Shown: positions 8,564 through 46,904 of the stretch, in pieces
Layout: each line of letters starts with the position of its first letter
Numbering within the stretch: position 1 is the first letter of the stretch
DNA from: a virus
Taxonomy: Duplodnaviria > Caudoviricetes
Reading direction: 5' to 3' (one strand)
Virus record (IMG/VR): IMGVR_UViG_3300025129_000005
Length of the DNA stretch: 64,000 nucleotides
Position numbers and translations under genes: made by a program
The notes under the pieces: model-generated
Seen by the model: only the letters and a program-made list of their open reading frames with translations
The model's database searches: none
What the model was told of the DNA's origin: nothing

Positions 8564-9085
8564 TCAAAAGTTTTTGGCTAACTCCTCGTTATCAGTATCA
8601 CCCATGGCATGAAGAGTGGCGATAATTTTAGTCATGTTTTTATATACATAGTCATGGTTTGATTGGAAATTATCATAAGTTGATATGGATATTCCTAGTA
8701 TATTTTGCATAATGTGTCGTGGTATAGAAGTTATACCCAGAAACGTTTTATCTATATTAACAATAAAAGAAATTATATCTTCTTTTTGAACTTTACTGAA
8801 CTGTAATTTAATATCTTTTTCCAGCTGTAATAAAGGTTCTTTATCTAAGATGTCAGCGTGTACGGAATAATCCAGTATTAATTTCATTAAATGGAGAACA
8901 CCTTTACCAGCTTTACCTAATTGCTCTTGAAATGTTTTTGATTTACGGACTTTTATGCCCATCTTTTGACCGAGTTTTTGAAGTGAAGCTAAAAACTCAT
9001 CAGAAACTTCATTAATTTCATTAGTTAGATATATAAATCCTAATATATTAAATTCACGTTCGTTTAAATATTGCTGAAATTTCAT
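8564..9085 (-). CDS. Putative internal head protein (CTS-like tag)
   Basis: Starts MKFQQYLNE; TATAAATA upstream; similar to 13444..14052. Confidence 0.6.
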   Translation of the reverse strand: MKFQQYLNEREFNILGFIYLTNEINEVSDEFLASLQKLGQKMGIKVRKSKTFQEQLGKAGKGVLHLMKLILDYSVHADILDKEPLLQLEKDIKLQFSKVQKEDIISFIVNIDKTFLGITSIPRHIMQNILGISISTYDNFQSNHDYVYKNMTKIIATLHAMGDTDNEELAKNF

Positions 9086-9117
9086 AAAAAATTAATATCC
9101 TTAATGTAATATAAACA

Positions 9118-9125
9118 TATTTATA
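9118..9125 (-). promoter_or_regulatory. T4-type late promoter TATAAATA
   Basis: Exact consensus upstream of 9085. Confidence 0.75.
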
Positions 9126-9131
9126 TATTAT

Positions 9132-9359
9132 CTACAAATAATTCATTTTAATATCATTCACATATTTTTTGTAATCATGGATTATCTCAAGGCGACCTTC
9201 TTCGAGAATAAAGCCATCATCATCAACGATGCGGTGGTACTCATACGGGCTAAAGCGATAAATTTTAACCCATAGATTATCCTTGATTTTCTCTTTGTAT
9301 AAGAGACCGAATTCGTTTCCTAGCACTTCATGGACAGGTTCTTTTTTCATCATAGTCAA
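9132..9359 (-). CDS. Hypothetical protein
   Basis: 75 aa; GGGAG RBS. Confidence 0.6.
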   Translation of the reverse strand: MTMMKKEPVHEVLGNEFGLLYKEKIKDNLWVKIYRFSPYEYHRIVDDDGFILEEGRLEIIHDYKKYVNDIKMNYL

Positions 9360-9386
9360 TGTCTCCCTTCACTGACATTATACACA

Positions 9387-10307
9387 TTATACCCTCTTAC
9401 GTCTACGAATATTTACGGTATCTGACGTTTTTGGAATATTATTTTTTATAAAGTCTCTCAGGTCATCCCAATTCAACATTTCATTTTCGAAATCTTTACT
9501 TGATTTCATGGGTTTACCTGACTCCTTAACGTTTATATATTTAAAGCTTTTGATTATAAAGGTCTTATCTTTGCTGTATTTTCCTATTTGTTCTATTCTT
9601 TCTCCGGGTTGTTGTATGTACTTATTTTTACCCTTCATCGTCTCTTTGGTATCACCTGTTGTCATATACACGGTGTTTTTGTTACCACCAAGAATAATAT
9701 TTATATCACCATCTATATGAGTTCCTATAATGTTATATTTATGTCTTAATATATCCGTAACTGTATTTGCGGCTCCAGAATGAGTTTTTAGCATAATATC
9801 ATAAGGAACCCTTCTTTCCCGTGTTTTATTTTGTTCCACTGCTACATAGAAGTCTGTCAGCACCCATGTTAAATGAACATCTTTTGGTTTATATCCCACT
9901 TCTAATAATTGAGGTATAATTTCAGTTATATCATTTATATCTTTCAACGTTACATCAAACATTATATTAGGTAGATTATTTTTTGATGCGCCTGCTAGAA
10001 GTAATTCAAGAGTTTCGTCTTTCCACCCTTTATCTTTTACAAATTGATGTAATCTTTTAATGTCATCTGGATTACTCCAAACTGTATTAGCAATTTCAGG
10101 ATTTTCTTTCTTTAGCTTTGATATTTTAACTGCCATTTTTTTTAATTCATCCACATCTCTGACCTTAAACTTGTTTTTTTCCATGAAATTGGACGAGGAG
10201 AATCCCTTTCCGCTCCCGGCACCTCCAGCGAGAAAAACAATTTGACCGTATGACTTTCCCCCGCCAACGATAATTTGTTTTTCTGTAATATAACTTTCAA
10301 AACGCAT
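9387..10307 (-). CDS. Zeta-toxin-like P-loop kinase with CTS-like tag
   Basis: IVFLAGGAGSGKG Walker A, VRDVDE, IMFDVT and AVEQNKTRERRVP follow the zeta/AAA_33 pattern; starts MRFESYITE. Confidence 0.75.
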   Translation of the reverse strand: MRFESYITEKQIIVGGGKSYGQIVFLAGGAGSGKGFSSSNFMEKNKFKVRDVDELKKMAVKISKLKKENPEIANTVWSNPDDIKRLHQFVKDKGWKDETLELLLAGASKNNLPNIMFDVTLKDINDITEIIPQLLEVGYKPKDVHLTWVLTDFYVAVEQNKTRERRVPYDIMLKTHSGAANTVTDILRHKYNIIGTHIDGDINIILGGNKNTVYMTTGDTKETMKGKNKYIQQPGERIEQIGKYSKDKTFIIKSFKYINVKESGKPMKSSKDFENEMLNWDDLRDFIKNNIPKTSDTVNIRRRKRV

Positions 10308-10343
10308 GATAAGACCCCTAATGTTATGATTGGTATTTAATGT

Positions 10344-10351
10344 TATTTATA
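10344..10351 (-). promoter_or_regulatory. T4-type late promoter TATAAATA
   Basis: Exact consensus upstream of 10307. Confidence 0.75.
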
Positions 10352-10355
10352 AAAA

Positions 10356-10385: not shown

Positions 10386-10408
10386 GTATTACATTATATT
10401 ATAATGTT

Positions 10409-12390: not shown

Positions 12391-12624
12391 TTATCGAGGT
12401 GCTACGGTTGATACTGCGACACTACCACTTTTCACGGGTTTTGATTTACTTTTTACAGACTCTTCTGAATCATCATCATCACTTTTCTTTTTCTTTTTAT
12501 TGATGATGTTATTACGTGTCTGTAATTTAGCAACATCCCCGGTAGTTGTTCCGGTTGAAATTCCTGTAGGTGTACCAGATATTTCTTCCCCTATGTATGT
12601 ACTAATCCTTTCCAATATATCCAT
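12391..12624 (-). CDS. Small hypothetical protein, possible internal head protein
   Basis: Starts MDILERISTYIGE; charged low-complexity tail. Confidence 0.55.
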   Translation of the reverse strand: MDILERISTYIGEEISGTPTGISTGTTTGDVAKLQTRNNIINKKKKKSDDDDSEESVKSKSKPVKSGSVAVSTVAPR

Positions 12625-12633: not shown

Positions 12634-13434
12634 TTATGGTAGTGCCGGTATAGGATTAACAATCACAGGATCAACCACAACAGGATCAACCACAACAGGA
12701 TTAACGACTGTTGGTGTTGCTGTTTGATTTTCATAATCGTTACGATTATCGCTGTTATTGCTGTTATCACTGTTATCAGACAAATCATTTCCTTGATTGC
12801 TGTTATTACTGTTATCAGACAAATCATTTCCTTGATTGCTGTTATTACTGTTATCAGACAAATCATTTCCTTGATTGCTGTTATCACTTTGATTATTATA
12901 GCTATCAGCAATAGGAGATGTAGATGTCGTTGCTACACCATTAACACCATTGTTAACCGCTTGATCTCCTCCAGCAGTGTATACAGTAGATCTGGTTCCC
13001 ATAGCTCCTGTAACCCTATCCACAGCAAACCCCATTAAAGTGAATCGTGCTATATCTTTTACGACACCAAATCCCTCTTTTACCACAGAAGACTCTACAG
13101 GGGAATATCCATTTGTGGATGCTATAGCATGTAAGCCTGTTATTTCTGCGGTTTTGTCTGCTTTGTTGATAATTCCTTGACCGATAAATACTGTTTTTAA
13201 TTTACCTTCATCATCGGTTTCTACAAGAAAACCTGCACTTGAGTATTTACCATCGAGTTGTGATGGTTGTGGTTTTGGTGCGGCGGCTTTTGCTTCTTCG
13301 ATTGCTTGTATCGCCTCTATTCTTTTTTGGTCAAATTCTATTTTTTTCATCTGAACATCATTGAAATTCGTACCACATCCAACTAATAAAAAGATCATGA
13401 TAAAGCTTATTACATATTTGATATAATTCATCAT
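12634..13434 (-). CDS. Lipoprotein with Asn/Ser-rich tandem repeats
   Basis: Signal peptide with lipobox LVG-C; 13-aa repeat x3; PVVVD repeats. Confidence 0.8.
   Translation of the reverse strand: MMNYIKYVISFIMIFLLVGCGTNFNDVQMKKIEFDQKRIEAIQAIEEAKAAAPKPQPSQLDGKYSSAGFLVETDDEGKLKTVFIGQGIINKADKTAEITGLHAIASTNGYSPVESSVVKEGFGVVKDIARFTLMGFAVDRVTGAMGTRSTVYTAGGDQAVNNGVNGVATTSTSPIADSYNNQSDNSNQGNDLSDNSNNSNQGNDLSDNSNNSNQGNDLSDNSDNSNNSDNRNDYENQTATPTVVNPVVVDPVVVDPVIVNPIPALP
12770..12886. repeat. 39-bp tandem repeat x3 (coding)
   Basis: Unit CTGTTATCAGACAAATCATTTCCTTGATTGCTGTTATTA; one change in the third copy. Confidence 0.95.
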
Positions 13435-13443: not shown

Positions 13444-14052
13444 TTATATAGATTTAATTACTGACTGCAAATCATCAAGACCGAATAATCTTGCTATGCC
13501 ATGCATCAATTGCTTTAATTTATTCTTAACTTCATCGCCTGCCTCTTTTGCCGCATCTGTTAGGTTGGTTATGGCATTTTTAGCTTTAGTTAACATATCT
13601 TCACTTTTGGTTTTTATGTGTGCCCATATATGCCATCCAGTAACAGCGTCTATGAGATGTAAGGGTCCCGATACTAGATGAAGGGTTGCCATATCAAGTT
13701 TTAGAAGAAAATCCAAAACCTGTTCTTTTGTTATTTGGGTGTTGGCTAATTCTTTCATTCGAACTTTTGAATCTTCATTACCAGCAGCAGCCCGAAGTGT
13801 GTGCCAGATAAATTCTGCCATTAACTTTCCAGATTTGAGTGCGACCTGAATAAGACCGTCACCTGATTTATGTGCCCCTCCACCTATACTTTTAAGTAAG
13901 GCACCAGCCCCTTTTTTAAGGGTATTGAGATCGAATGCCTCGTTCATATTCGCGCTATCATCAAGTATCATTGATATTTCTAATACAATCTCCATGTCTC
14001 TATATTCCTCATGGGTGTATAGTCTCTGATTAATTTTGTTTAAAATATCCAT
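13444..14052 (-). CDS. Putative internal head protein, paralog of 8564..9085
   Basis: Starts MDILNKIN; MNE/A candidate gp21 site; shares KE.(I/V)..F...(I/L)D...L...S.P.H with 8564..9085. Confidence 0.55.
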   Translation of the reverse strand: MDILNKINQRLYTHEEYRDMEIVLEISMILDDSANMNEAFDLNTLKKGAGALLKSIGGGAHKSGDGLIQVALKSGKLMAEFIWHTLRAAAGNEDSKVRMKELANTQITKEQVLDFLLKLDMATLHLVSGPLHLIDAVTGWHIWAHIKTKSEDMLTKAKNAITNLTDAAKEAGDEVKNKLKQLMHGIARLFGLDDLQSVIKSI

Positions 14053-14119: not shown

Positions 14120-14572
14120 TCAGATTCCTGATTTATCTTCGTACATCTTCCATTTACTTTGTTCTTTTTTGGGAATGCGCTCATACGTTTCTTCTGGGGT
14201 CAGCCATTTTATTGAGTTTTTACTGGTTAATTCGATAGTGTCCTTCCAAGGATTTACAATATAAATATCTTTTCCATTTTTATCAGCATATTCACATTCA
14301 CGCCATGTACCATTACCCATTTTACCGTCTTTAAATGTCATAGCACATACATGTTCAACTGTATCAATAACTTTAAAGAATATATCAAACCCCATATCAT
14401 CAACTCGACCTTGTATCCAGTTAACATTGGGATTAACAATAATAAATTCTGGAAATTTTTCTGTTATGATGTTGATGGATTTTTTTTCTTCTGGTTTGTC
14501 ATAAAATGCACGTGGATGTGCAAAATATATTTTACGGCGGTTAGCCTCGGTTAAATAGTTGCTAAACTTCAT
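14120..14572 (-). CDS. Nucleoside 2-deoxyribosyltransferase (NDT)/N-glycosidase-like protein with CTS-like tag
   Basis: KIYFAHP strand 1 and GTWRECEYADKNGKDIY match the NDT KIYLAGP / GT..E..YA...GK pattern, including the catalytic Glu. Confidence 0.7.
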   Translation of the reverse strand: MKFSNYLTEANRRKIYFAHPRAFYDKPEEKKSINIITEKFPEFIIVNPNVNWIQGRVDDMGFDIFFKVIDTVEHVCAMTFKDGKMGNGTWRECEYADKNGKDIYIVNPWKDTIELTSKNSIKWLTPEETYERIPKKEQSKWKMYEDKSGI

Positions 14573-14581: not shown

Positions 14582-15274
14582 TCATATTAGGTGTAAGTCT
14601 CCCTTATCGTCGATCCATAACGTATAGAAACTAATAGGTGGTATTTTTTCTGTTGTTATATCCAAATTGTATTTATTTATAACCTTATCTTCTATGTCCT
14701 TGGAAAGATTCTTTTCTATATCCTTCAATGCTTTAAGGTTAGGTTTGTGATCATCTATTAATCGAACACGTCTGAATTCCCCGGTTTTTATATACCTTAA
14801 CATGACATTTTTTTTAACACCATCAATCGTTTTTCCGGGCTTCCACTCATCACCTGACATTTCAACGTCAACAATCTTACCATCGATATTGACACCATTT
14901 TGAATAAACGTTTTCTTAAATTCATCCATATCATTAAATGATGCTCTTGCTGTGAGAAAAATAATCTTACTACCAGAGTCCATTTCTTTGATTTTAGCAA
15001 TCATATTTCTAATTCTGGTGAATGTTTTTGGTATAGGTATACTCGTTTCCCTAAATATCTTAGCACTACGAAATTGATGAAAGTCGTACTCTTCACCATC
15101 TTTTAATTTATAGCTATTATATTCTGTATTGGTTAACTCCCGTACAACTTTACCGTTCTTTTTTACTAATACTTTAGCAAAGGTCTTGAATATAGTTTCG
15201 TCGATATCAACAAAGGTAATACCTTTACCATAACGTTCACGTGAAAATTCATTTAAATATCTATCAAACCTCAT
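14582..15274 (-). CDS. HAD-superfamily phosphatase with CTS-like tag
   Basis: Motif I FVDIDET, motif II FLTAR, Lys (VKK), motif IV LIDD. Confidence 0.85.
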   Translation of the reverse strand: MRFDRYLNEFSRERYGKGITFVDIDETIFKTFAKVLVKKNGKVVRELTNTEYNSYKLKDGEEYDFHQFRSAKIFRETSIPIPKTFTRIRNMIAKIKEMDSGSKIIFLTARASFNDMDEFKKTFIQNGVNIDGKIVDVEMSGDEWKPGKTIDGVKKNVMLRYIKTGEFRRVRLIDDHKPNLKALKDIEKNLSKDIEDKVINKYNLDITTEKIPPISFYTLWIDDKGDLHLI

Positions 15275-15642
15275 TTATATAACTTTCCTTTGTTTATTAA
15301 GTCGTTATATTTTTCTTTACCATAATAATTGTATAGAACCATATGTACATATTCATGACCTGTTACTTCAAAGTCTAGTAAGCTATGCACTATAATTGTT
15401 TGTCTATTATCAACACCAGAAAAGAAAAAATATCCAGTATTAATGAAATCTTTTCTTACTATTAGTCTATGCTCGGGTATTATTATCTCAAAATTAATTG
15501 GGGTATTTGACCCAAACTGTTCAATTCTTTGTTTATATAAAGGATCTCCTTTTCTAATATCCAGAGGTGTTGGATTAGATACATCACAACTCGGTATTAA
15601 TATAAAGAGTAATACACTAATTATTGATATTATATATTTCAT
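15271..15642 (-). CDS. Lipoprotein with HExxH metallopeptidase-like motif
   Basis: Signal peptide ending IPS-C; GHEYVH. Confidence 0.6.
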   Translation of the reverse strand: MKYIISIISVLLFILIPSCDVSNPTPLDIRKGDPLYKQRIEQFGSNTPINFEIIIPEHRLIVRKDFINTGYFFFSGVDNRQTIIVHSLLDFEVTGHEYVHMVLYNYYGKEKYNDLINKGKLYK

Positions 15643-16174: not shown

Positions 16175-16194
16175 TATTTATAAAAACATAAATA
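16175..16194. promoter_or_regulatory. Back-to-back late promoters: TATAAATA (-, 16175-16182) and CATAAATA (+, 16187-16194)
   Basis: Located at the strand switch between the two gene blocks. Confidence 0.75.
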
Positions 16195-16224: not shown

Positions 16225-16734
16225 ATGAAATTTGGTACATTTATTTTAAACGAAAATATGATAGATAAATCCAAATCATTTTTAAAAAAAATGGATTTTT
16301 CAAAGTCAAAGAATTTCCTTAAAAATGAATTTGATAAGTTTGTGCATGCATCGATATCCAGTGGTATAGAAGAACAGGTTATATCTCTGATCAACAAAGC
16401 CTTTGGTACACATTTTCGTAATCTAAACCAACTAAAAAAAGAAAGATTGAAAGAATCGGATGAATTGATTAACGAAGACCTTGCTCATTGGTGGGATGTA
16501 GTTAAAACAGAGGCATTTCCTACCTTAGCATTTTATCCGGCATTAACGGTTTGGTTAGAGATTGATAAACTGTTCAAAATGCAGGACATGGATATAACTA
16601 AAACTATTGTGTATTCTTTGTTTTGGATATTACTTATAAGCGGTAAATACGTAAAGGGTTGGTCACAATGGAAAAAACAAAACCCTGATGAATATAATGC
16701 TGAAAGGTTACAAGGTAAAGGAGGAATAATATAA
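16225..16734 (+). CDS. Putative internal head protein with hydrophobic C-terminal half
   Basis: Starts MKFGTFILNE; LKE/S and INE/D candidate gp21 sites. Confidence 0.55.
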   Translation: MKFGTFILNENMIDKSKSFLKKMDFSKSKNFLKNEFDKFVHASISSGIEEQVISLINKAFGTHFRNLNQLKKERLKESDELINEDLAHWWDVVKTEAFPTLAFYPALTVWLEIDKLFKMQDMDITKTIVYSLFWILLISGKYVKGWSQWKKQNPDEYNAERLQGKGGII

Positions 16735-16911: not shown

Positions 16912-17304
16912 TTGGAGGATAAAATGGATTTATTGAATAAGATTGATATGTTTGTTGGTTATACTGTTGAGGATATCAACGAGGAAACTGAGTACCAAAA
17001 ATTTTTCAAAAAGAAGTTGAAGGCATATAATATATCTTCACCTTCTGAACTTGATGACGAAAAGAAGAAGAAATTCTTTGATGAGATTAAAAAAGAGTGG
17101 ACTTCTGGCAAAGGTGAGAAAAAAACCAACGAAGGTGAACTACCACCCGCATTGAAGAAGGCCATTGAAGCGAAAAAGAAGAAAGATGGTGATGATGGTG
17201 ATGGGGAAGAGGGTGAGTCCAAAAAACATGAAGACTCTGAGTCTGATAAAGAAGAAAAAGAGGAACACAAGAAAGGATCTAAAAAAGACAAAGCCGATAA
17301 ATAA
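16912..17304 (+). CDS. Putative prohead core/internal protein (true start probably ATG 16924)
   Basis: INE/E site; YQKFFKKKLK...SPSEL..KKKFF..I..EW and GELPPALKKAI motifs familiar from T4-like head-region proteins; highly charged. Confidence 0.55.
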   Translation: MEDKMDLLNKIDMFVGYTVEDINEETEYQKFFKKKLKAYNISSPSELDDEKKKKFFDEIKKEWTSGKGEKKTNEGELPPALKKAIEAKKKKDGDDGDGEEGESKKHEDSESDKEEKEEHKKGSKKDKADK

Positions 17305-18537: not shown

Positions 18538-18975
18538 ATGAAAATAGATGAAGTTATAGATAGATATTTGGTGGAAATGGATATTGATAAAGTACTTAAA
18601 TCTTTGTTTGATGGTAAAACTAAAAGAAAAGCTTTAATAAAAAAATCTAGTTTTATTGATAAACTATTAGGTATTTTTGTCGATGTTAATTCAATTGATG
18701 GTGAACTTGGATTGAATGCCGACGCTATGCGAGATGTGTTAGATAGTGAAGGTTTCACTGATGAGGAAATAAAAGCCATAAGAGAAGTTGTTATTAAAGC
18801 ATCTAAGACTGTATCACGTTATATTGCGAACAAATATAAAATGAAGGTGTCAGAAATACCATCAAATTTTGGTGTTTATACTGTAGTTAATATGTCCCTT
18901 TCTGATAGTAAAATGGAGAAAGAATTTAACGATCTATTAAAGAAACAGGTATATCAAAGATTGAATAAGATATAA
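18538..18975 (+). CDS. Hypothetical protein, possible internal head protein
   Basis: Starts MKIDEVIDRYLVE; AAGGAG RBS. Confidence 0.6.
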   Translation: MKIDEVIDRYLVEMDIDKVLKSLFDGKTKRKALIKKSSFIDKLLGIFVDVNSIDGELGLNADAMRDVLDSEGFTDEEIKAIREVVIKASKTVSRYIANKYKMKVSEIPSNFGVYTVVNMSLSDSKMEKEFNDLLKKQVYQRLNKI

Positions 18976-31200: not shown

Positions 31201-31863
31201 AATCGTGGAACAGAAGATAATTATAGATTTATGTTCCGTGAAACTGATGACACTTTCCGTGTTGGTGCCGGGTTCTTATCAATAGAAGTTTCGCCGGGTG
31301 AAGGGGCTTTATTCCAAGTTGGTGAATTGGTAACAGATATAACCACAGGTGCTTCTGGTACTGTAATATTAATTACAGGTGATATTCTTGATATTAATAA
31401 AACAGCCAATACAGCTGATTTTGTAAACGGAAACACTATTGATAGTGCAAGTGTAGGAGCATCATCAACTATAGTATCAGTTATATATGGTGATCAAACA
31501 CAAGCTGTTGCGACAAGAGAGGATGTACCTCTTGATACTGGTATTGCGACATGGGATTCATCACAACAAATGTTTGTCGCCCTTTTATGGGAAACAGCGA
31601 CTGATGCAATGGAGTTGATTCTTGGTCGTAAATATATTGTTGATGATTCAGTTTCCACGTTAACATTACCTGCATCACCGTCAGAGGTCGGGCAAATTGT
31701 GACATTAAAAGACCTTGATGGTGTTTGGTTTTCTAACCCGGTAACACTAGGATCAAATGGTAACAACATTATGGGATCTGTACAAGATATAATTCTTAAT
31801 GTCACAGGTGATACCCTTGAATTAGTGTGGTCTGGTAATGTTCAGGGATGGATAATTTTATAA
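25291..31863 (+). CDS. Giant tail-fibre-like protein (2190 aa)
   Basis: Long G(N/D)(V/L)TG and GLHTG repeats; repeated ILDNG..GTDA.F.G and IIP...Y.LG....W motifs; GAL.V.GG.GI repeats; C-terminal gp34-like domain. Confidence 0.8.
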   Translation: MADTLYKFYVRNTTDDGWVNILTEDNISVVDSNNIFLGNRLDEVLYELNTKLESIDGGGPGWDGSPVHIIETGNTSGFNDNTASFSTEGGATIFLDANIGGNLGVQGTSSFSGDMTLVGSDINIGGDIFSVVNISGDGTGDIDGFVNATVTGTIEGNVLIVTGTVKSDLIPDETDMYDLGSSGVVWNNIYAAIYNGDLKGNIRNGNDTIILTVGDDLTPAEFIGNVTGSVTGDLIGNVTGDVTGSILNTDLTVILDSGDDLIPAIFTGNVTGDLTGNVTGNIIGDVTGDLTGNILSDGGQLVINNGTDGTDAFFIGALTGNVTGDVTGDVTGDTFGFHTGDVTGDVTGDTFGLHTGNVIGDVTGDTNGLHTGNVSGYILASNNISVILDNGTNGTDATFYGDVTGNVTGDLTGDIFNVDDTLIFTSGSNGVPAEFIGNVTGDLTGDTNGLHTGNVTGDVTGDTFGLHTGNVIGDVTGDTSGLHTGDVIGNVDGNLEGDVTGNTNGLHTGNVIGDVTGDVTGNTNGLHTGNVIGDVFSSDGINKILDNGTNGTDATFVGTTTGYHNGNVTGNVVASDAPYPIILNNGTDGTDATFQGDVLNSDSSIVVNVGSNAIPAEFTGNLIGNVNGNTVGVHTGESNGLHTGDVTGDVTGDTFGIHTGNVVGNVSGDTSGLHTGNVVGNVTGATNGLHTGNVVGNVTGNLEGDVTGDLTGDTFGTHTGSVFGDVTGNLSGDTVGTHTGSVIGNVSGNLTGNVTGDLDGNVLNEDLTIILSSGSDVTPAVFVGNVTGNVTGTLNGNSNGLHTGNVTGDVTGDTFGIHTGDVVGNLTGASNGLHTGDVIGNTNGLHTGNVVGNVTGNTTGNILSDNGLVTILSNGVSPDGADAIFVGSVNGNVTGNTSGIHTGKVVGDLDGNVLNEDLTIILSSGSDVTPAIFVGNVTGNVTGDLDGDVNGNVTGNTFGIHTGDVTGNVTGDTFGSHTGSTNGLHTGNVVGNVTGDTTGTHIGPVTGDVTGNLVAAMTTAHDMSVSDIDAVSVTTGSLSTSSVNSSFIPSSPFNLGSAVNSWGDLHISRILGAVNIESTVATIGTLNVSSISGATLTGSFIGNLTGDVDADMVTANTLTGNFNGNIEGDTTQVTSGWDLVNGVGSANAFDVVGGVSIGKNLTVSESVMVGGGVTVTGDVLANNLDFANFNSDIIPVTDDTYNLGSPTHRWSSVNANQITVDTLAFSLLSGDIMGDVQSGNGDIVLDNGVDGTDATFQGDIISPDGTTIFSNGDLIDGSDSLLTSNVIGNVTGGITATSLNVTGNITSNIIPNVTNTYTLGDNTHRWANVYTGTITSGTIISTSIIGTVIGDLTGDLIAITTNAVNITTTGDINVGGTLTSDIIITPQLDGNIKGNILNSDDVFIFNSGGNGNDAEYTGNVTGDIRSGNGVVILDNGSDGTDAVFVGNLTKTTGVSVTSVSNSVDQYTGALRVAGGISLEKDIWIGGTAHVLGSFILSGAFSVPYATIVQAEITSTASSFDKNTGALVLTHGGLGVEENANIGGYVTIGETLDVIGSTYLHSTLRVDGSVDINNYIDIDITGAPGDAFSLNTDGSVTFVNNSFDIDSNDVIGIDTDTTLTLTGTTNLDINGGDVTFDSTGTMVIGSIGSTTITSGDTYSITADNQLNITSTVGDLWLYSGDNFKVVGYNTLNIESPVSTIGLNNTQLLNITSKVNSNIIPSGTNTLDIGGVGEAWRDFYVNRVLVEGGNTTTNNNTGDVIVIGGIATQNNLWVDGNTDIIGTLDVVSNTTIGGTLDVVSNTTIGGTLDISGITTITNTTQSVDVATGALVVDGGVGIAKNVFIGGNIEAGDITAHISFHGQLIGNVIGNVTGTLDGDLLNMVTHGVAMELADYLAVGTSLSVNGISTLNDDLYVDGNTTVTGNLDVIGDLIVQGTQTIINTETITLQDNMIILNNGQTGIPSTSLVSGFEVNRGTEDNYRFMFRETDDTFRVGAGFLSIEVSPGEGALFQVGELVTDITTGASGTVILITGDILDINKTANTADFVNGNTIDSASVGASSTIVSVIYGDQTQAVATREDVPLDTGIATWDSSQQMFVALLWETATDAMELILGRKYIVDDSVSTLTLPASPSEVGQIVTLKDLDGVWFSNPVTLGSNGNNIMGSVQDIILNVTGDTLELVWSGNVQGWIIL
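30628..30711. repeat. 36-bp tandem repeat x2.3 within the fibre gene
   Basis: GGAACACTTGATGTTGTAAGTAATACAACTATTGGT twice plus a partial copy. Confidence 0.9.
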
Positions 31864-35441: not shown

Positions 35442-37013
35442 ATGGGATGGCTGGCTAAACTAAAAAATAAAGATACTCCTATAGAAAGAATTGATGAGCA
35501 GTTGGATGCATTCAAGCCTAGACGAGAGAGAGCCTCAACAAAAAAGGCAAAATCTGGTGAAGGTCTTGAGGATATGGATTTTATCCTACAAGGTAATTAC
35601 AATGCCTTGGGATTTAATAGCTTTTATCGTACATATATAAACAAAACCTTTCAAAATGAGTTGGAGCGTCTTAAATATTATCGTGAAATGTCACAATATC
35701 CAGAGATTGCTGATGTTATAGAAGATGCCGCCATGGAATCTACTCAAGAAGACTACGAAGGGCGTACCGTTAGATTAGAGGTCATCGACGAAGATTTTGC
35801 TTCTAATAAAAACATTGTAACAAATTTGCAGAAAGAATTCAACGATTTGTTTTACAAGAAGATGAAAATTAAATGGGAAATGTGGAACCTGATGTATAAC
35901 TATTTTGTTGACGGTAAGGTTTATTTTGAACATTTGATTAATAAAAATCGACCTAAACAGGGAATTATAGGAATAAAAAGATTGCCTTCGGAAACAATGG
36001 ATTTTGTATATGATCCGGTTACAGGGGAAATTGTTGCCTATTATCAGTATTTGTCACTCAAACCAAGGCAACAACCACCTACAGTTGAAGATGCAATTAA
36101 AGATCCTAATATTATTGTATTTTATCCAGATCAAGTATCATTGGTACATTATGGATATCAAGGCGAGACTAAACGCGAGTTTCTTGGTTATCTCGAAAAA
36201 GCCAAACAACCATATAACAATTTAAGACTTCTTGAAACCTCTGTTGTTATATATCGTTTAATTCGTGCCCCTGAGAGATTCGTATTTTCAATTGATACGG
36301 GTAATATGCCTAAAGATAAGGCTATGAAATATGTAGAGAAGATGAAGCAAAAATTTCAGAAAAAACAAACATATGATGCTGGTACTGGTAAATTAACAAA
36401 TGAACCAGAAGTGTTTTCGATTCTTGAAAATTTTTTCTTACCCCAATCAGCTGATGGTCGCGGTTCAAGTGTTGATTCTGTTGGGGGAAACCCTAGCGGT
36501 TTTGCTGAGTTAGATGATTTGTATTACTTTCAAAGAAAAATGTATAAATCATTAAAATATCCAGCTTCGCGTGTAAGTTCATTACAGGAACGTGCAGAAT
36601 CAGACATACTTTTTAATAACGGTCAAATGGGGGAAATAACTCGCGACGAAATTAAGTGGGCTAAATTCCTTGAAAGACAACAGATGAGATTTTGTAATGA
36701 ATTTCTTAATCTATTTTTAATACACTTGGATTTAAAAGGTCTAAAGAAACAATATGATGTAAGTGAGGATAAAATAAGAGTTACTATGACCTCACCTAAC
36801 CAATATCGTGATCATATGAGACAGGGCTTACAGGAAACTAATTTTAATAACTATAATCAGTTAGCAAATAATGAAGAATTCTCTAAATACTATTTAATGA
36901 AGAGATATTTAAAATGGACTGATGTTGAAATAGATGCAAATGCTGCAGGTTTTAAGAGAGATAAAGAATTGATGCCAAGTGATGATGAATCGGGTGGCGG
37001 ATTTGGATTTTAG
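35442..37013 (+). CDS. gp20: Portal protein gp20
   Basis: YREM..YPEI, VDGK.YF, KP.N.LRLLE.S.VIYRL.RAPER..F.IDTGNMPK.KA..Y, ENFFLP..GRGS.V, YFQRKMYKSL.YP.SR. Confidence 0.97.
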   Translation: MGWLAKLKNKDTPIERIDEQLDAFKPRRERASTKKAKSGEGLEDMDFILQGNYNALGFNSFYRTYINKTFQNELERLKYYREMSQYPEIADVIEDAAMESTQEDYEGRTVRLEVIDEDFASNKNIVTNLQKEFNDLFYKKMKIKWEMWNLMYNYFVDGKVYFEHLINKNRPKQGIIGIKRLPSETMDFVYDPVTGEIVAYYQYLSLKPRQQPPTVEDAIKDPNIIVFYPDQVSLVHYGYQGETKREFLGYLEKAKQPYNNLRLLETSVVIYRLIRAPERFVFSIDTGNMPKDKAMKYVEKMKQKFQKKQTYDAGTGKLTNEPEVFSILENFFLPQSADGRGSSVDSVGGNPSGFAELDDLYYFQRKMYKSLKYPASRVSSLQERAESDILFNNGQMGEITRDEIKWAKFLERQQMRFCNEFLNLFLIHLDLKGLKKQYDVSEDKIRVTMTSPNQYRDHMRQGLQETNFNNYNQLANNEEFSKYYLMKRYLKWTDVEIDANAAGFKRDKELMPSDDESGGGFGF

Positions 37014-37259: not shown

Positions 37260-37877
37260 ATGAAAAAGGGTTTTCTGATTACAGAATACAACCATGACCT
37301 TCAAATAAATGAAGGTAAAGATAAAAACTTATATGTAACCGGTATATTTTCTTCATTTGGTGATCGTAACAATAATGGTCGTGTTTATGAAGAGGATACA
37401 ATGAAGCGTGAGGTTGATAAAATCTTAGGTAAAATAGAGAAAAAGTGTTTATGGGGGGAGCTTGGTCACCCACCTAATCCCGAAATCAACCCCGACAAAA
37501 TTGCCATTAGAGTGGAATCTTTGGAATGGGAAGGTAAACATTTATATGGTAAAGCTAAAATACTCAACACACCACAAGGTCAGATTGCGAAAGAATTAGT
37601 AAAAGAAGGGATGATTGGTATTTCTTCGCGAGGTCTTGGTACAGTATCGGAAGATGGAACTGTAAACGAAGATTATAATCTTTTGACATGGGATTTGGTT
37701 ACTGACCCATCAAATGGACCATCATGGGTTAATGGTATATTTGAAGGTCGTACATGGGAAATATCCAAAGAAAAAGAATCTGAACCAGATGTTCCTCAGA
37801 TCACTGAATCACAAGCAAAAGAAGAGTATTTTAGGTATATTATAGATTCTATTCGTTGTATTGAAAAGAACTTATAG
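37260..37877 (+). CDS. gp21: Prohead protease gp21
   Basis: N.NGRVY, WGELGHP, G.AKIL.TP.G, GISSRGLG, WDLV.DPS. Confidence 0.97.
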   Translation: MKKGFLITEYNHDLQINEGKDKNLYVTGIFSSFGDRNNNGRVYEEDTMKREVDKILGKIEKKCLWGELGHPPNPEINPDKIAIRVESLEWEGKHLYGKAKILNTPQGQIAKELVKEGMIGISSRGLGTVSEDGTVNEDYNLLTWDLVTDPSNGPSWVNGIFEGRTWEISKEKESEPDVPQITESQAKEEYFRYIIDSIRCIEKNL

Positions 37878-38015: not shown

Positions 38016-38798
38016 ATGAATTTAAAAAAAATTCTAGAAATGCTTGAAGTAGAAAAGATTGATGAATCCAAACAATCTGAAATTAAAGATATCCTTAATA
38101 CTATTATCGAATCAAAAGCGAAAGAAATTTCCGATAAAAGAATTGAAGAGTCATTAATTGTAGAAAAGGATAAGTTGGTCGAAGAGTTTGAAACCAAGTT
38201 TGAAGATTACAAAGAGGATGTTACATCAAAGTTTAGTAATTTTGTTGATAGTATTCTTGAAGAAGAGATGATTATTCCTGATAAAATTATCAAATATGCT
38301 CGTTTAGGTGAACTGTATGAAGATTTGATTGACCAATTCAAAGTTCGTCTTGCTATTGATGAAGGTTTGCTTGATCAAGAAGTCAAATCTATCCTCAGTG
38401 AAGCAAAATCTGAAATTGAAACTCTTCGTAACAATGTCAATGAACTTACCGGTCAAAAACTTACACTTGAAAGGGATGCACGTGATCTTGCAACGCACGT
38501 ATATTTGCGTAAGAAATGTGATGGTCTTACTGAGTCCCAAAAAACATCAGTAATGAGTATTTTAGAAGGATCATCCAAGGATGATATTGATAAAAAGTTT
38601 GAAATTGTACTTGAATCTATCAGATCTACCGATGATAAAGAGGAAATAAAAGAAGAAGTGAAAGTTGAAACAAAAATAGAGACAACCGAAGTAAAAGAAT
38701 CGACAACCGAAGCTTCGGAGGAAGTGAAGGAAAAAATGAACGAAAGCAATTCCATGATGTCTCAGTGGAAAAAAATGCTTCGTGAAAACAAATTTTAA
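38016..38798 (+). CDS. gp22: Prohead scaffold protein gp22
   Basis: Acidic coiled coil with several [IL]xE/S sites, between gp21 and gp23. Confidence 0.9.
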   Translation: MNLKKILEMLEVEKIDESKQSEIKDILNTIIESKAKEISDKRIEESLIVEKDKLVEEFETKFEDYKEDVTSKFSNFVDSILEEEMIIPDKIIKYARLGELYEDLIDQFKVRLAIDEGLLDQEVKSILSEAKSEIETLRNNVNELTGQKLTLERDARDLATHVYLRKKCDGLTESQKTSVMSILEGSSKDDIDKKFEIVLESIRSTDDKEEIKEEVKVETKIETTEVKESTTEASEEVKEKMNESNSMMSQWKKMLRENKF

Positions 38799-38826: not shown

Positions 38827-40131
38827 ATGAGTGCATATGTAGAAAATCTTGTTAAAAATTGGGGAGAAATCCTCGATGAAGGACAAAAAATTAATAATCG
38901 TAAGGTAAGACGTGCTACCGCTGTTATGCTTGAAAACCAAGCAAAATACCTTACAGGTCGTTCAGGAATGAACGAGTCCAGCGCCACTGCGTCTACAGTT
39001 GGACCAGAAGGTGGTGGTACTTTTTATAATGGTGGTAATGCTGATTATCAAACGAGTGGTGAGTTTCACAAAATTGCGATTCCTATGGTTCGTCGTACCT
39101 TCCCCGAACTGATCGCTCATGATATCGTTGGTGTTCAGCCCATGACTGGACCTGTTGGTCTTGCGTTTGCTCTTCGTTTCCGCGCAGATCAAGAATATGC
39201 CGGAACTGCTACCGGTCAGGAAATAGGATACAACACTGTTGATCCTTATTACACCGGTGATAATCAAAATCAAGAACGTATGACCACAGTTAACGCCGAG
39301 GGTCTTGGTTCTCGTGCTGCAGATGCTGCTAATACATCTGTTGACGGACATTTGTCTCAAGATACAGGTGCTGCTGGCACTGGTGATCGCGGTCTTGGTA
39401 TTGGTTCAGGAAAGCAAATCAAAGAACTTAGCATGACAGTTGAAAAGGCTCAAGTTGAAGCGGGTACCCGTAAGTTGCGTTCTCGTTGGAGTCTTGAAGT
39501 CGCTCAAGATCTAAAGGCGATGCATGGTCTTGATCTCGAAGAAGAAATGATGGACGTTCTTGCTTACGAAATCACCGCTGAAATTGACCGTGAACTTATC
39601 AACACAATTCGTTCGGTTTCCGCTAATAACGCATCATCAACCGCTTGGAATTATGCTACTGCTGATGGTCGTTGGGAAGCAGAAAAATATCGCAATTTCT
39701 ACAACCTGATTATTCGTAAAGCAAACCGCATTGCTGTTGATACTCGTCGTGGTGCTGGTAACTTTACTGTAGCGGCTCCTTCGTTGTGTGCTGCCCTTGA
39801 AACTACATCGTCTTTTACAATTCAACCTGTAAATGCCGCTGTAAATACCGCAGTAACAGGTGTAGCAAAGATTGGGTCTCTCGATGGTCGTATGACTGTA
39901 TATCGTGATACTTTTGCTACAATTGATGATATCATCATTGGCTACAAAGGACCTAGTGAGTATGACACCGGTATTATATATCTTCCTTATATTCAGCTTC
40001 TTGTTTCTAAGGCTGTTTTTGAGGATAGCTTTAATCCTACCGTTGGTCTGATGAGTCGTTATGCTATTCATCAACACATTTTTGGTGCTGAAAACTACTA
40101 CATTCAGGTTGCTGTTCAAAATCTGCCTTAA
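38827..40131 (+). CDS. gp23: Major capsid protein gp23
   Basis: W..ILD, A.MLENQ, IPMVRR.FP.LIA.DIVGVQPMTGPVGL.FALR, TRKLR.RWS.E.AQDL.A.HG.D.E.E, EITAEIDRE. Confidence 0.98.
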   Translation: MSAYVENLVKNWGEILDEGQKINNRKVRRATAVMLENQAKYLTGRSGMNESSATASTVGPEGGGTFYNGGNADYQTSGEFHKIAIPMVRRTFPELIAHDIVGVQPMTGPVGLAFALRFRADQEYAGTATGQEIGYNTVDPYYTGDNQNQERMTTVNAEGLGSRAADAANTSVDGHLSQDTGAAGTGDRGLGIGSGKQIKELSMTVEKAQVEAGTRKLRSRWSLEVAQDLKAMHGLDLEEEMMDVLAYEITAEIDRELINTIRSVSANNASSTAWNYATADGRWEAEKYRNFYNLIIRKANRIAVDTRRGAGNFTVAAPSLCAALETTSSFTIQPVNAAVNTAVTGVAKIGSLDGRMTVYRDTFATIDDIIIGYKGPSEYDTGIIYLPYIQLLVSKAVFEDSFNPTVGLMSRYAIHQHIFGAENYYIQVAVQNLP

Positions 40132-40249: not shown

Positions 40250-40257
40250 TATAAATA
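40250..40257 (+). promoter_or_regulatory. T4-type late promoter, 5 nt before the ATG
   Basis: TATAAATA-catat-ATG. Confidence 0.75.
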
Positions 40258-40262: not shown

Positions 40263-40742
40263 ATGAAATTACTGAAATATATCAATGAATCCTTTGATAA
40301 ACCATACCCTTTCGATTGGAGAAGAATTCCCCATGACAACAAAGGTATCGGTTTCAGAGGTTCATTTAAGTCATCTAAGCATACTATTGAAGTCGCTCTT
40401 ACCCCTGATCTTGATAAAGAAAATGAGTGGGAACTTTTCTTCTTTATCAAAAATAAAGATATATCTGGTAACTTCGATCTTACTAATGATGGCGATGCAT
40501 TCAGAATCTTTGCCACAGTTATCGCTATGACCAATGATGCACTTGATATTATACAGAAATCTAAAAAACTCTCCATTGATACCCTCTTCTTTACTGCAAG
40601 TAAAGAAAAAAGTGATAATGAAAAAATTACCTCCGATGCACGTTCCAAACTCTATGTCAGAATCGTTAAAAAACTTATTAAACCCAAAAATATCAGAATC
40701 GTTGACTTATATGATAAAACTAAATTCTATATCATAATTTAA
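40263..40742 (+). CDS. Hypothetical protein with CTS-like tag, flanked by direct repeats
   Basis: Starts MKLLKYINE/S; FDLT..GDAFRIFATV...FTA...RSKLY.R motif. Confidence 0.75.
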   Translation: MKLLKYINESFDKPYPFDWRRIPHDNKGIGFRGSFKSSKHTIEVALTPDLDKENEWELFFFIKNKDISGNFDLTNDGDAFRIFATVIAMTNDALDIIQKSKKLSIDTLFFTASKEKSDNEKITSDARSKLYVRIVKKLIKPKNIRIVDLYDKTKFYIII

Positions 40743-41651: not shown

Positions 41652-42839
41652 GTGATCAAAAAAAATTATGTTATAGATACAAATGTTTTGCTGGAGAATG
41701 AGAAGTGCATTGAAATTTTAAGGAACGGTGAAGATAATAACATATTTATTCCTTATACTGTAATAGAAGAGTTAGATAAATTAAAAGGAAATAAAAGAAA
41801 GAGACACCAAGTTACAAGAGCAGTAAATGTCCTCAGAGATAATGCTGATTATATAACAGTTATATCAAATGGGATTAAACATGAATCCCCTGATAACTTT
41901 ATTATAAAAGAAATACTATCAAATTTAGACAAAATTCCTGATGCGATATTTGTTACAAACGATAACCTGTTAAGGTTTAAGGCTCAAAAACAAGGAATAA
42001 TGTCAGAGGAATTTAGAGATAGCAATCCATTTCAATCTGAGTCCCAAAGATATACAGGATTTGTTAATGTTGAAAATGGTGAAATGATAGAAAAAAATTG
42101 TTTTTATTGGAAGGATGGTAAATTATTCTTCAATAATAGATATGGAGAGGAAAGGTTAGTCGAGGATCGTGAGGTTTGGAAAGTTTCCCCGAGAAATCAA
42201 TACCAGAAAGCGGCTATGGATTTAATATTGAATGACGATATTGATTTGGTCACCATTCAGTCAGATGCTGGATTTGGAAAAACCTTTTTGGCATTAACTG
42301 CTATGTTTGACCAAGTGTTCGAAAAAAAGAAATTCAAAAAGATTTTCGTTTTTAAGGCTAATATAGAAATTGGCAATGAATTAGGATTTTTGCCCGGTGA
42401 TATGAATGACAAAATGTATCCGTATTTTAGACCAATTCAGGATCTTATGGAAAAGCTTCATGACCTGAGAATTTGTAATTCTGCATGGGAAGATCCTCAA
42501 TCAATGAAGCTGGAATTGAACAGACGTAAGATCGAAATGTTGCCAATAAACTTCTTGAGAGGGATGAATATAGATGATGCTATTGTATTGATAGATGAGG
42601 TTCAAAATTTATCTAGAGATGAATTAAGGACTGTTTTGAGCCGTATGGGGGAAAAAGTAAAGGTTATATGCACAGGCGATGTTAGGCAGATAGATAATAT
42701 TCATTTGAACCAAGATAATAATGGATTAAATTGGATGGTTAGATTATTTAAAGGTCAAGATAACTATGGTCATGTTGTTTTGGCTGGAAATAAATCAAGA
42801 GGACCAATTGCTGACCTAGTGAGAGAGAGTGGAATGTAG
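41652..42839 (+). CDS. phoH: PIN-PhoH fusion protein (PhoH2/YlaK-like)
   Basis: PIN YVIDTNVLL...VIEELD...VTND; PhoH AGFGKT, LGFLPG, LRG, IDEVQN, SRMGE, TGD..QID. Confidence 0.92.
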   Translation: MIKKNYVIDTNVLLENEKCIEILRNGEDNNIFIPYTVIEELDKLKGNKRKRHQVTRAVNVLRDNADYITVISNGIKHESPDNFIIKEILSNLDKIPDAIFVTNDNLLRFKAQKQGIMSEEFRDSNPFQSESQRYTGFVNVENGEMIEKNCFYWKDGKLFFNNRYGEERLVEDREVWKVSPRNQYQKAAMDLILNDDIDLVTIQSDAGFGKTFLALTAMFDQVFEKKKFKKIFVFKANIEIGNELGFLPGDMNDKMYPYFRPIQDLMEKLHDLRICNSAWEDPQSMKLELNRRKIEMLPINFLRGMNIDDAIVLIDEVQNLSRDELRTVLSRMGEKVKVICTGDVRQIDNIHLNQDNNGLNWMVRLFKGQDNYGHVVLAGNKSRGPIADLVRESGM

Positions 42840-44497: not shown

Positions 44498-44499
44498 AC

Positions 44500-44507
44500 C
44501 ATAAATA
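44500..44507 (+). promoter_or_regulatory. Late-type box CATAAATA, 5 nt before the ATG
   Basis: CATAAATA-cttat-ATG. Confidence 0.6.
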
Positions 44508-44512
44508 CTTAT

Positions 44513-44857
44513 ATGAGATTTGTCAATTACATAACAGAAGACTATGAGACGGTTCGGGATTATAAAAAAGCAATCTTTGACTTGAAGGTTGCTTTGGGTG
44601 AAATAGATTTTCATGAAGATGAAAAGGTGCCTAGTGATCCTGAGAAGCATAAGTTATTTAAACAGAAAAAGTTAGGTCTTAAACTTAAAGTTATAGCGTT
44701 AAAAGAAAAAATTCAGAAATTAGCTAAGGTTTTGGGTGAGTCAGGGGAAGAGGTTCCTCAAGTAGAAGGTCTTAAAGATTTTCTTGATAGAGTTCCTGAT
44801 AAAGATAGTGAAGAATCACAAACTCTACTAAAAAAGAGAGAGAGGTTTAGTAAATAA
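44513..44857 (+). CDS. Hypothetical protein with CTS-like tag
   Basis: Starts MRFVNYITE/D. Confidence 0.7.
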   Translation: MRFVNYITEDYETVRDYKKAIFDLKVALGEIDFHEDEKVPSDPEKHKLFKQKKLGLKLKVIALKEKIQKLAKVLGESGEEVPQVEGLKDFLDRVPDKDSEESQTLLKKRERFSK

Positions 44858-46605
44858 TGGCTATTTCACGTACACAATTAATGGATAAAGTTAAGAGACG
44901 ATTGGGTGCCCCGATGGTTAAAGTGGAACTTTGTGATGAGCAGATTATTGACCATATAGACTATGCTCGACAAAAATGGATTAAATGGGCTATAGGAAAT
45001 GCAACTCAAGAGACGTATTTTACTGTTATGTTACAGGCCGGTAAGAGATTTTACGATCTACCTGCAGGAGTTCAAGAGGTCGTTTCGTATGATGACTCCC
45101 CTATTAAATCAGGTGGTATTAACACACTTTTTACTATTGATAACTTTATGTTTTCTAATGGGTTTTATGGAAACGCTTTTCAAGGTGGATATGATTTAGT
45201 TTCATATCACCTCGTTTTGGATTTTATGACCACTTTATCAAAATATAGAACAACACCTTATAATTATAAGTATCATAAATCTACTAATCAGATAGAGATT
45301 GATCCTGCGCCACCCTTTGACGGAAAACAGAAGAGTGTTAATATCAACCATCCAGTTACAGGTTTGCCTACAAAAATGTATGTTGATTCACCCGGATGGG
45401 TTTTATTGAGAACTTATATGATACAGGGTGCCACGCTTCCAAATTATACCCCTGATTGGAGTATGATCCTCAAAGAACGCAAGACCATAGTTGAACAAAG
45501 GACATTAACAGAGGTGGAGGTTTTGAATAAATCAATCCTCTTGAATCATACCCCATTAGATGATGATGTTGATAGAACCGACTTTAATATTGAAGAAGAT
45601 ACTACTGTTACTATCGGAGGTCTTGCGTCTGTGAAGGGCGTGGATTGGGACTTTCATTTTTATAATCCAAGGGTTATAACTTGGGCCCAACCAGAAAGAC
45701 AGGATCCTTATGGATTTGACGGAAATGTTAGTGTTGGTGATCAAATAACCATCACATATCCAGTCATATTTAATTCACAACACTATCCTGATGAATGGGA
45801 TAATGTAACTGCCACTTCTACTGAGGTTGAACAGTATGTTTTGACACAATCAGACATAGATAGAGGGTTTGTGAAGCTACAGAAGAAGGTGTTTAATAAT
45901 AACATTAAAATGTCTATCGGCGGTATAGATCATTTATATGGTGAAGATTTTATTGTTATTAATAATAAAATTCTTGATTGGAATGGTTTGTCCATCCAAC
46001 CGGTGTTGACTGTTGGTGATGTCATTGTTGTTACATATGTGACGGTTACCAGTATGAAACCGTCAGGTGGATCTACAGCCAAAATGCATGGTGTTAAAAA
46101 ACAGTACACAACGAGAATAGAAAATTTTAATATCACACAAGATAATATTGATTCTAAATCAATAACATTAGAAGAACCTATTTCTATGTATGACGGAGTT
46201 AAGCTTTCAGCGGGAGGTTTCGCTAAAGTTCTTGGTATTGATTTTAAAATTGACTCGTATGACCCAAATGTTATTACTTGGAATGGTTTACAGATGGACG
46301 GTGATATATCACTTGACGATAATATTGTTGTTACGTATACATCAGCAAATCCTATTATAACCGAACTCGAAGAACAGTTATACGATGAGGATTGGATTCT
46401 TGATTATGTTACAGCTTTATCAAAGATATCTCTTGGTATGATTAGACGTAAGCCGAGTACGTTTTCGGGTCTTGGTAGTTCTGGTGTAGGTCTTGATGGA
46501 TCTGATCTTATATCGGAAGGTAAAGAAGAAAAAGATGATCTTGAGACTAGATTGCGTGATGAAGAAGCATATGAGGGTTACGGTATTGAAATAGGATTAA
46601 TGTAA
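44857..46605 (+). CDS. gp13: Neck protein gp13 with a three-repeat insertion
   Basis: L...V.RRLGAP.V.VEL..EQI.D.I..A N-term; W..DY..AL.K..LG..R.K C-term. Confidence 0.88.
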   Translation: MAISRTQLMDKVKRRLGAPMVKVELCDEQIIDHIDYARQKWIKWAIGNATQETYFTVMLQAGKRFYDLPAGVQEVVSYDDSPIKSGGINTLFTIDNFMFSNGFYGNAFQGGYDLVSYHLVLDFMTTLSKYRTTPYNYKYHKSTNQIEIDPAPPFDGKQKSVNINHPVTGLPTKMYVDSPGWVLLRTYMIQGATLPNYTPDWSMILKERKTIVEQRTLTEVEVLNKSILLNHTPLDDDVDRTDFNIEEDTTVTIGGLASVKGVDWDFHFYNPRVITWAQPERQDPYGFDGNVSVGDQITITYPVIFNSQHYPDEWDNVTATSTEVEQYVLTQSDIDRGFVKLQKKVFNNNIKMSIGGIDHLYGEDFIVINNKILDWNGLSIQPVLTVGDVIVVTYVTVTSMKPSGGSTAKMHGVKKQYTTRIENFNITQDNIDSKSITLEEPISMYDGVKLSAGGFAKVLGIDFKIDSYDPNVITWNGLQMDGDISLDDNIVVTYTSANPIITELEEQLYDEDWILDYVTALSKISLGMIRRKPSTFSGLGSSGVGLDGSDLISEGKEEKDDLETRLRDEEAYEGYGIEIGLM

Positions 46606-46616
46606 AGGAGAATATT

Positions 46617-46904
46617 ATGATTGATGAACTGGTAGAAAAATATATTAACGAGTCAACAGAATGGTTTTATGTTGTTGATGATAAGACCAAAGAGGTTATG
46701 CATGACCTAAAAACAGGTGGAGTTGCAACTTTTGATACTCTGTTTAATACGAACCATAGTAAGGTTATCGCCTACAAGACACGGAAGGGTGCGGATAATA
46801 AGATAAAAAATATATCAACAAAGTCTAAATTGACCGTGATGAGTAGAAGTGAACTAAAAGATTATTATGATAAAATGGGTGTGTTAAGTAAGGGAGGTTC
46901 ATAA
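46617..46904 (+). CDS. Hypothetical protein, possible internal head protein
   Basis: Starts MIDELVEKYINE/S; AAGGAG RBS. Confidence 0.65.
   Translation: MIDELVEKYINESTEWFYVVDDKTKEVMHDLKTGGVATFDTLFNTNHSKVIAYKTRKGADNKIKNISTKSKLTVMSRSELKDYYDKMGVLSKGGS

Follow-up and report, generated by a model that had tools for sequence, protein, structure and literature searches.

A short N-terminal leader on unrelated proteins of an uncultured T4-like phage as a candidate capsid-targeting sequence

Introduction

Why should a dispersed set of otherwise unrelated phage proteins begin with almost the same nine residues? The question is raised by a stretch of 64,000 nucleotides from the virus record IMGVR_UViG_3300025129_000005 (Duplodnaviria; Caudoviricetes), hereafter the window, by which the whole stretch analyzed is meant. 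A first-pass annotation of these letters alone had noticed, between positions 8,564 and 46,904, a recurrent N-terminal tag and had read it as a signal for packaging into the phage head. With the proteins that enter the cell alongside its DNA, a phage opens its action against host defenses; T4 examples are a restriction inhibitor and an enzyme modifying RNA polymerase. The internal proteins of T-even phages form a diverse set with the leader alone in common, and this leader may be a general head-loading route for T4-like phages (PMC3012670, PMC9026906). The analysis reported here indicates that the nine-residue leader (class 1) and a longer variant (class 2) are probably this clade's version of the T4 capsid-targeting sequence, marking proteins that would be packaged and probably injected. 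The principle is already known from T4; the interest lies in the breadth of the set and the list of candidates, and no new mechanism is proposed.

The Class-1 Leader

Searched over all six frames of the window, the strict pattern M[KR][FL]..[YF][IL].E matches six times, always at the first Met of an open reading frame (ORF), and a 10-residue form, MKFGTFILNE, makes a seventh class-1 tag. All seven N-termini named in the first-pass annotation were found, with starts at 9085(-), 10307(-), 14572(-), 15274(-), 16225(+), 40263(+) and 44513(+). The genes are listed below with their lengths in amino acids (aa) and with any adjacent T4-type late-promoter box (TATAAATA or CATAAATA).

8564..9085, minus strand: 173 aa, MKFQQYLNE; no family found; TATAAATA at 9118-9125(-)
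9387..10307, minus strand: 306 aa, MRFESYITE; P-loop kinase (Zeta_toxin, phrog_5268); TATAAATA at 10344-10351(-)
14120..14572, minus strand: 150 aa, MKFSNYLTE; model weakly resembling nucleoside 2-deoxyribosyltransferase/DNPH1; 24 orthologues tagged
14582..15274, minus strand: 230 aa, MRFDRYLNE; likely HAD-type phosphatase with a DIDET motif (PHROG 'polynucleotide kinase' family)
16225..16734, plus strand: 169 aa, 10-residue form MKFGTFILNE; conserved hydrophobic helices; CATAAATA at 16187-16194
40263..40742, plus strand: 159 aa, MKLLKYINE, directly 3' of the capsid gene; DUF6934/GNAT-like fold as a lead; TATAAATA at 40250-40257
44513..44857, plus strand: 114 aa, MRFVNYITE, between the large terminase gene and a tail/baseplate-module gene; no family; CATAAATA at 44500-44507

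From composition, 0.0006 gene starts per window would be expected to carry the strict tag, against the six seen (Poisson tail ~1e-20), a roughly 10,000-fold excess. Codons at the conserved residues vary (Arg CGT/AGG/AGA, Ile ATT/ATC/ATA, Tyr TAT/TAC, Glu GAA/GAG, with Asn and Thr also variable) and, because synonymous codons differ, the constraint lies on the peptide rather than on the DNA, as had been claimed. The further claim that the bodies are unrelated holds in a larger sample, drawn from the window and its relatives. The 54 tagged proteins of this sample fall into 38 BLASTP clusters, mutually unrelated and in the majority without a Pfam family. Their sequence logo is fixed at M1, K/R2, F/L3, Y/F6, L/I7 and E9, with no conservation past E9. 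Two AlphaFold models place the tag outside the fold, as an N-terminal appendage modeled with low confidence, the first strand starting a few residues past the Glu.

Retention of the Leader in Relatives

A set of 80 related IMG/VR loci, whose capsid protein is 53-87% identical, contains 24 further tagged ORFs, all with the tag at the ORF start. Five related genomes gave 21 matches to a degenerate DNA pattern of the tag, against 0 for a reversed-pattern control. Class-1 tagged genes number 10 in genome G001 (236 kb, 98% complete) and 13 in genome G002 (204 kb). Among individual genes, the one at 14572 has 24 metagenomic orthologues, 52-89% identical, in all of which Glu9 is kept while positions 4, 5 and 8 drift; the tag is retained by orthologues of other tagged window genes too.

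The region upstream of the window is available from a 99.9% identical strain and contains a tandem array of six further class-1 genes (L125:1555-7131), whose tags are MRLEHYLTE, MKLEHYLNE, MRLENFLIE, MRFEQYINE, KFEQYITD...LITE (GTG start) and MRLVRYITE. An untagged gene for a papain-like peptidase lies inside the array. Four of the six tagged genes match phrog_11975, and three of these four, aligned with relatives, share conserved YRG, R..R.P and RSEGV..T[ST] motifs and a late Glu. The best structural neighbors of a model of this family are mostly of the ADP-ribosyltransferase fold, weakly so (Z 3-5, with the slower aligner only), whereas Foldseek against the PDB found nothing for the family, and BLASTP of two of the upstream tagged proteins against T4 Alt gave no similarity. 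An ADP-ribosyltransferase fold for these paralogues, reminiscent of Alt, is only a lead.

The Longer Class-2 Leader

The first-pass annotation had also listed looser forms of the tag. These are present at 12624, 18538 and 46617, and they belong to a class of their own. When [YF][ILM].E cores are counted by the position at which they end, their density per 1000 residues is 7.8 at residues 6-10, 3.9 at residues 11-15 and 1.15 in the background. Anchoring on the Glu finds 64 N-terminal matches in the related loci, some of them redundant copies of one gene from overlapping contigs, and their consensus is M-x-I-[DE]-E-K-I-x-K-Y-L-x-E. The looser forms constitute a real and recurrent second class of 12-14 residues ending in K-Y-[LI]-x-E. 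Together with the seven class-1 genes, the window contains three to five class-2 candidates, three of them clear, one (16924) assigned by orthology and one (the 14052 gene) doubtful.

12391..12624, minus strand: class 2, 77 aa, MDILERISTYIGE; basic low-complexity body
18538..18975, plus strand: class 2, 145 aa, MKIDEVIDRYLVE
46617..46904, plus strand: class 2, 95 aa, MIDELVEKYINE
16924..17304, plus strand: probable class 2 by orthology, 126 aa; degenerate leader ending in DINE at residue 20; orthologues begin MRILEKIDNYLSE or MKIDEVVNKYLTE
13444..14052, minus strand: uncertain loose member, 202 aa, MDILNKINQRLYTHEE; the G001 orthologue begins MDIIHKLTQYQYTIEE

The Head Module and the T4 Capsid-Targeting Sequence

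The head module is complete in the window:

35442..37013, plus strand: gp20-type portal protein (family search)
37260..37877, plus strand: gp21-type prohead protease, 205 aa (phrog_207 at 1.7e-52; BLASTP against T4 gp21 at 2e-21)
38016..38798, plus strand: gp22-type scaffold protein, 260 aa (scaffold PHROG match)
38827..40131, plus strand: gp23-type major capsid protein (BLASTP)

The source of the window is a distant T4-like myophage; its major capsid protein shares at best ~35% identity with gp23 of cyanophages and 30% with that of T4 (BLASTP against the latter, 1e-45). A search of a phage collection found no near-identical DNA, and the same phage, at 99.9% DNA identity, can be found in dozens of metagenome assemblies.

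The [ILM]xE sites that had been claimed for the protease, the scaffold and the capsid protein are all present. The protease begins MKKGFLITE and has more [IL]xE sites at residues 18 and 183, while the scaffold has 18 [ILM]xE sites, with ILE, MLE and IDE inside its first 17 residues; these N-terminal sites parallel those of T4 gp21 (LIE at residue 9) and T4 gp22 (LIAE). In the capsid proteins of the clade, many relatives have YL[TNM]E, with A, S or T as the next residue, aligned at the boundary between a conserved ENQ helix and the mature domain, and this boundary motif is the core of the tag itself. The window copy carries an insertion, and its predicted propeptide site is GMNE/S at residue 50 (the slash marks the cut). 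T4 gp23 is likewise cut at FLTE/A, resembling FIAE/A of the T4 leader.

The T4 leaders read MKTYQEFIAE in internal proteins IPII and IPIII and MKTFKEFTS...ITE in IPI. According to a T4 review, suppressor analysis tied targeting to positions 4 and 7 of the leader, and its processing to positions 8 and 10 (PMC9026906). With an offset of one residue, these are the very positions fixed here, F3, Y6, [LI]7 and E9 corresponding to T4 leader positions 4, 7, 8 and 10. The general likeness to the targeting sequence of IPI-III (Mullaney and Black, 1996, reviewed in PMC9026906 and PMC3012670) extends to an N-terminal leader of ~10 residues on unrelated proteins, the MK start, two aromatics three residues apart, the [IL]-x-Glu end, an encoded gp21-type protease, genes that look late and mature proteins that are mostly basic. 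There are differences as well. The class-1 tag is one residue shorter for want of Thr3 and reads F..Y[LI]xE against Y..FIAE in T4; it has at least 13 bearers in this phage, several of them enzymes, against three or four bearers in T4; and a longer tag class runs parallel to it, in a phage whose capsid protein is only ~30-35% identical to those of T4 and cyanophages. An additional T4 protein, gp61.1 (L112:967-1131), a hypothetical protein of 54 residues, starts MKTFKEFIKE, near the internal-protein leader.

Packaged enzymes have a precedent in T4 Alt, an ADP-ribosyltransferase that is packaged, processed by gp21 and injected. Its leader, MELITELFDE, is of a second, acidic/hydrophobic type ending in aromatic-x-Glu and resembles the class-2 tag, although no tagged protein tested has sequence similarity to Alt itself.

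The propeptides of the giant phages phiKZ and SPN3US are long and heterogeneous, with the cleavage motif [SAG]-x-E, and the Dar and polyvalent proteins are loaded through protein-protein dependencies or fusion into a giant polyprotein, not through a short cleavable N-terminal tag; in the present phage, unlike phiKZ and SPN3US, one short and near-uniform tag is reused. As for shared features, many diverse proteins of phiKZ and SPN3US are head-loaded, trimmed by a T4-related prohead protease and ejected into the host (PMC5694885, PMC7411985), and in the phage P1 Dar system and among polyvalent proteins, anti-defense proteins are loaded into the capsid and enter the host along with the DNA (PMC9024508, PMC5512222).

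Late Promoters

In five of the seven class-1 genes, as the first-pass annotation had noted, a TATAAATA or CATAAATA box lies 5-36 nucleotides (nt) upstream of the ATG. The other two, 15274 and 14572, belong to a minus-strand operon headed by a further box:

16175..16182, minus strand: TATAAATA box heading the operon with tagged genes 15274 and 14572

Such boxes precede 5/7 tagged and 5/66 untagged genes in the window (Fisher P = 3e-4), and 11/30 tagged and 53/739 untagged genes when two relatives are pooled with it (P = 9e-6). Homologues of a gp55-like late sigma factor are encoded by relatives. By this association, the tagged genes look late.

Two of the boxes, TATAAATA at 40250-40257 and CATAAATA at 44500-44507, end exactly 5 nt before the ATG, and neither gene has a Shine-Dalgarno sequence. 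T4 late transcription begins ~6 nt past the box; if it does so here, the late mRNAs of 40263 and 44513 would be leaderless. Orthologues in two related loci (L005 and L007) have an ordinary spacer with a Shine-Dalgarno sequence. Another TATAAATA box, at 25247, stands directly before an ORF of 2190 residues (25291-31863), probably a fiber or other large structural protein.

Predicted Cargo

The first-pass annotation had counted three nucleotide-acting enzymes among the tagged proteins, and the three fare differently. The protein of 9387-10307 is solidly assigned by its sequence as a P-loop kinase of the Zeta_toxin/AAA_33 type, with a Walker A motif GGAGSGKG, a PF06414 score of 23.7 bits against a cut-off of 22.3 and a match to phrog_5268 at 2.7e-50. 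The 14582-15274 product is likely a HAD phosphatase: its DIDET (DxDxT) motif is invariant among orthologues, its Pfam match falls under the cut-off (18.3 vs 27) and it matches the PHROG 'polynucleotide kinase' family at 7e-6. For 14120-14572, a deoxyribosyltransferase/DNPH1-like fold is weakly supported by a model (pLDDT 83) whose top Foldseek matches are nucleoside 2-deoxyribosyltransferases and DNPH1 (E ~3e-3, TM 0.45-0.5), and a language-model search (Atlas) also favors the deoxyribosyltransferase fold, with a score of 0.83-0.85. Sequence searches of these three proteins against solved structures returned nothing useful. The 40263-40742 protein resembles DUF6934 and GNAT-like folds, as a lead only. 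Eight of 10 predicted mature forms have an isoelectric point of 7.9-9.6, and in being mostly basic they are like the T4 internal proteins.

Proposed Mechanism and Alternative Explanations

Packaging, cleavage after the Glu and ejection are inferences. The tagged genes would be transcribed late from T4-type TATAAATA promoters, in keeping with their association with the boxes. The two aromatics of the leader, if they act as mutagenesis suggests for T4, would dock the protein on the scaffolding core during prohead assembly. The gp21-type protease would then cut past the invariant Glu, at the same Y-[LI]-x-E core that many relatives have at the capsid propeptide boundary, and the mature, mostly basic proteins may remain in the head with the DNA and be ejected at infection, as are IPI-III and Alt. 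In everything that sequence can test, the system agrees with T4 capsid targeting, and the capsid-targeting interpretation of the first-pass annotation comes out well on each such point: the strictly N-terminal placement, the retention by orthologues, the coincidence with residues functional in T4, the core shared with capsid sites, the late boxes and the gp21-type protease.

Several observations weigh against this interpretation. T4 gp61.1 carries a leader-like start, yet its annotation goes no further than a hypothetical protein, and the motif by itself is therefore no proof of packaging. The window's own capsid site, GMNE, is not YLxE and fits [ILM]xE only. In the 16225 family, hydrophobic helices are conserved (roughly residues 96-112 and 127-143) and the tail is basic; its members may insert in a membrane, and the 16225 protein may therefore not be a simple soluble head cargo. 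The 44513 gene has a conserved place within the structural module, and its product could therefore be an assembly factor. These two proteins may thus be membrane or assembly factors instead of injected cargo. When the protease was modeled in complex with the N-terminal 40 residues of the 44513 product, the score was 0.00, which counts neither way.

The main rival explanation keeps the protease and dispenses with the cargo: accessory proteins of the core or scaffold would carry the leader as a propeptide for the prohead protease and, once loaded and cleaved, would be broken down or expelled, as happens with T4 gp22, gp67 and gp68. It can draw on a cleavage core identical to that of the scaffold and the capsid protein, on the very small and charged nature of several class-2 bearers and on the position of the 44513 and 46617 genes inside the structural module. 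Against it, several bearers are folded enzymes (the kinase, the HAD phosphatase and the deoxyribosyltransferase-like protein), and the gene sets show a hyperplasticity typical of host-interaction genes; moreover, no bearer has an internal [YF][ILM]xE site, though just ~1.7 would be expected. This explanation is considered unlikely. An N-terminus serving some purpose outside the capsid, such as translation initiation or other mRNA features, chaperone or membrane targeting, or an N-degron, has a slim probability. Highly expressed genes often have Lys or Arg at codon 2, one of the bearers (16225) has the look of a membrane-associated protein, and in two genes the promoter box just 5 nt from the ATG makes for an unusual start region; yet residues 3, 6, 7 and 9 are fixed despite the synonymous codon variation, and the coincidence of the fixed positions with T4 functional positions and with the capsid cleavage core would be left unexplained.

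Two further explanations are highly improbable. The leader could be a recognition sequence for a modifying enzyme, on the model of radical-SAM-linked N-terminal tags; no such enzyme adjoins any tagged gene of the window, and the tagged genes are dispersed. The leader could otherwise be without function, a leftover of duplication or recombination in which cassette exchange has passed the same 5' end from gene to gene, and for this there is a case in G002, where four adjacent tagged genes with unrelated bodies (26750-29472; L096:6750-9472) have the identical 17-nt start ATGAAATTTAAACAATA, which suggests tag-anchored duplication or cassette exchange. The window tags, in contrast, differ in DNA, and in orthologues that are 52-89% identical Glu9 and the aromatics are invariant while positions 4, 5 and 8 drift, which indicates purifying selection on the peptide.

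With the leader read as a capsid-targeting sequence, a wider proposal can be made tentatively, namely that the tag marks a large and fast-turning-over set of pre-packaged enzymes, beyond stoichiometric inhibitors, that would act at DNA entry. Candidates are the P-loop kinase, the HAD phosphatase, the N-glycosidase-like and GNAT-like proteins and, possibly, the array of paralogues with an ADP-ribosyltransferase fold. If this holds, their action could be directed, e.g., against nucleotide-signaling or RNA-damaging host defenses, and the injected set of an uncultured T4-like clade, and of cultured phages such as RB43 and the Slopekviruses, could be read from sequence. A rule as simple as the first nine residues with an invariant Glu9 would yield a testable list of injected proteins for a widespread uncultured T4-like lineage, and the tag could act as a loading handle in the engineering of related phages.

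Tagged Homologues in Cultured Phages

The same rule points to a kinase family in cultured RB43, Matisse and CC2, where packaging is directly testable. In cultured T4-like phages, members of this family (phrog_5268) start with T4-style leaders, namely MKSFKQFTESTLTE/A in Matisse, MKSFKDFVSLDE/A in RB43, MKSFKDFTSLDE/A in leB and MKMKFSEFVQLEE in CC2, the genes being located as follows:

L001:3977-4816: kinase-family locus, Matisse
L117:392-1225: kinase-family locus, RB43
L118:371-1204: kinase-family locus, leB
L119:436-1287: kinase-family locus, CC2

An untagged HAD-type gene directly follows the kinase homologue in Matisse, RB43 and leB. In the flanks examined, the head genes hoc and inh can be found near the kinase homologue of Matisse, and a hoc-like gene comes next in CC2. 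A scan of the Matisse genome for MKSF-type leaders found the kinase only; of two other matches, one was antisense and the other lay in a UvsW fragment. The kinase homologue is labeled 'anti-RM protein dam3' in the records of two Klebsiella phages, a label not traceable in the literature. Regarding the other tagged proteins, Vibrio phage 6E35.1a encodes a homologue of the 40263 product with the N-terminus MKFEQFMES.

Other Genes of the Region

Two lipoprotein-like genes lie among the tagged genes, at 12634-13434 and 15271-15642, with the lipoboxes LLVGC and LIPSC; the former also has tandem NSNQGNDLSD repeats and a tail of PVVVD repeats. Three tandem paralogues of 553-561 aa have near-identical N-termini, two of them in the window (1436-3097 and 3129-4811) and one at L123:11683-13368. 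At 41652-42839, a PhoH-like ATPase with a GTG start has an extra N-terminal domain of ~150 residues, which from its VIDTNVLLE motif might be guessed to be PIN-like. Finally, genes for a NADAR-domain protein (L123:7658-8161) and an RtcB RNA ligase (L123:19820-20950) lie within or just upstream of the window start and, together with the tagged kinase and phosphatase, hint at an investment in RNA or ADP-ribose repair.

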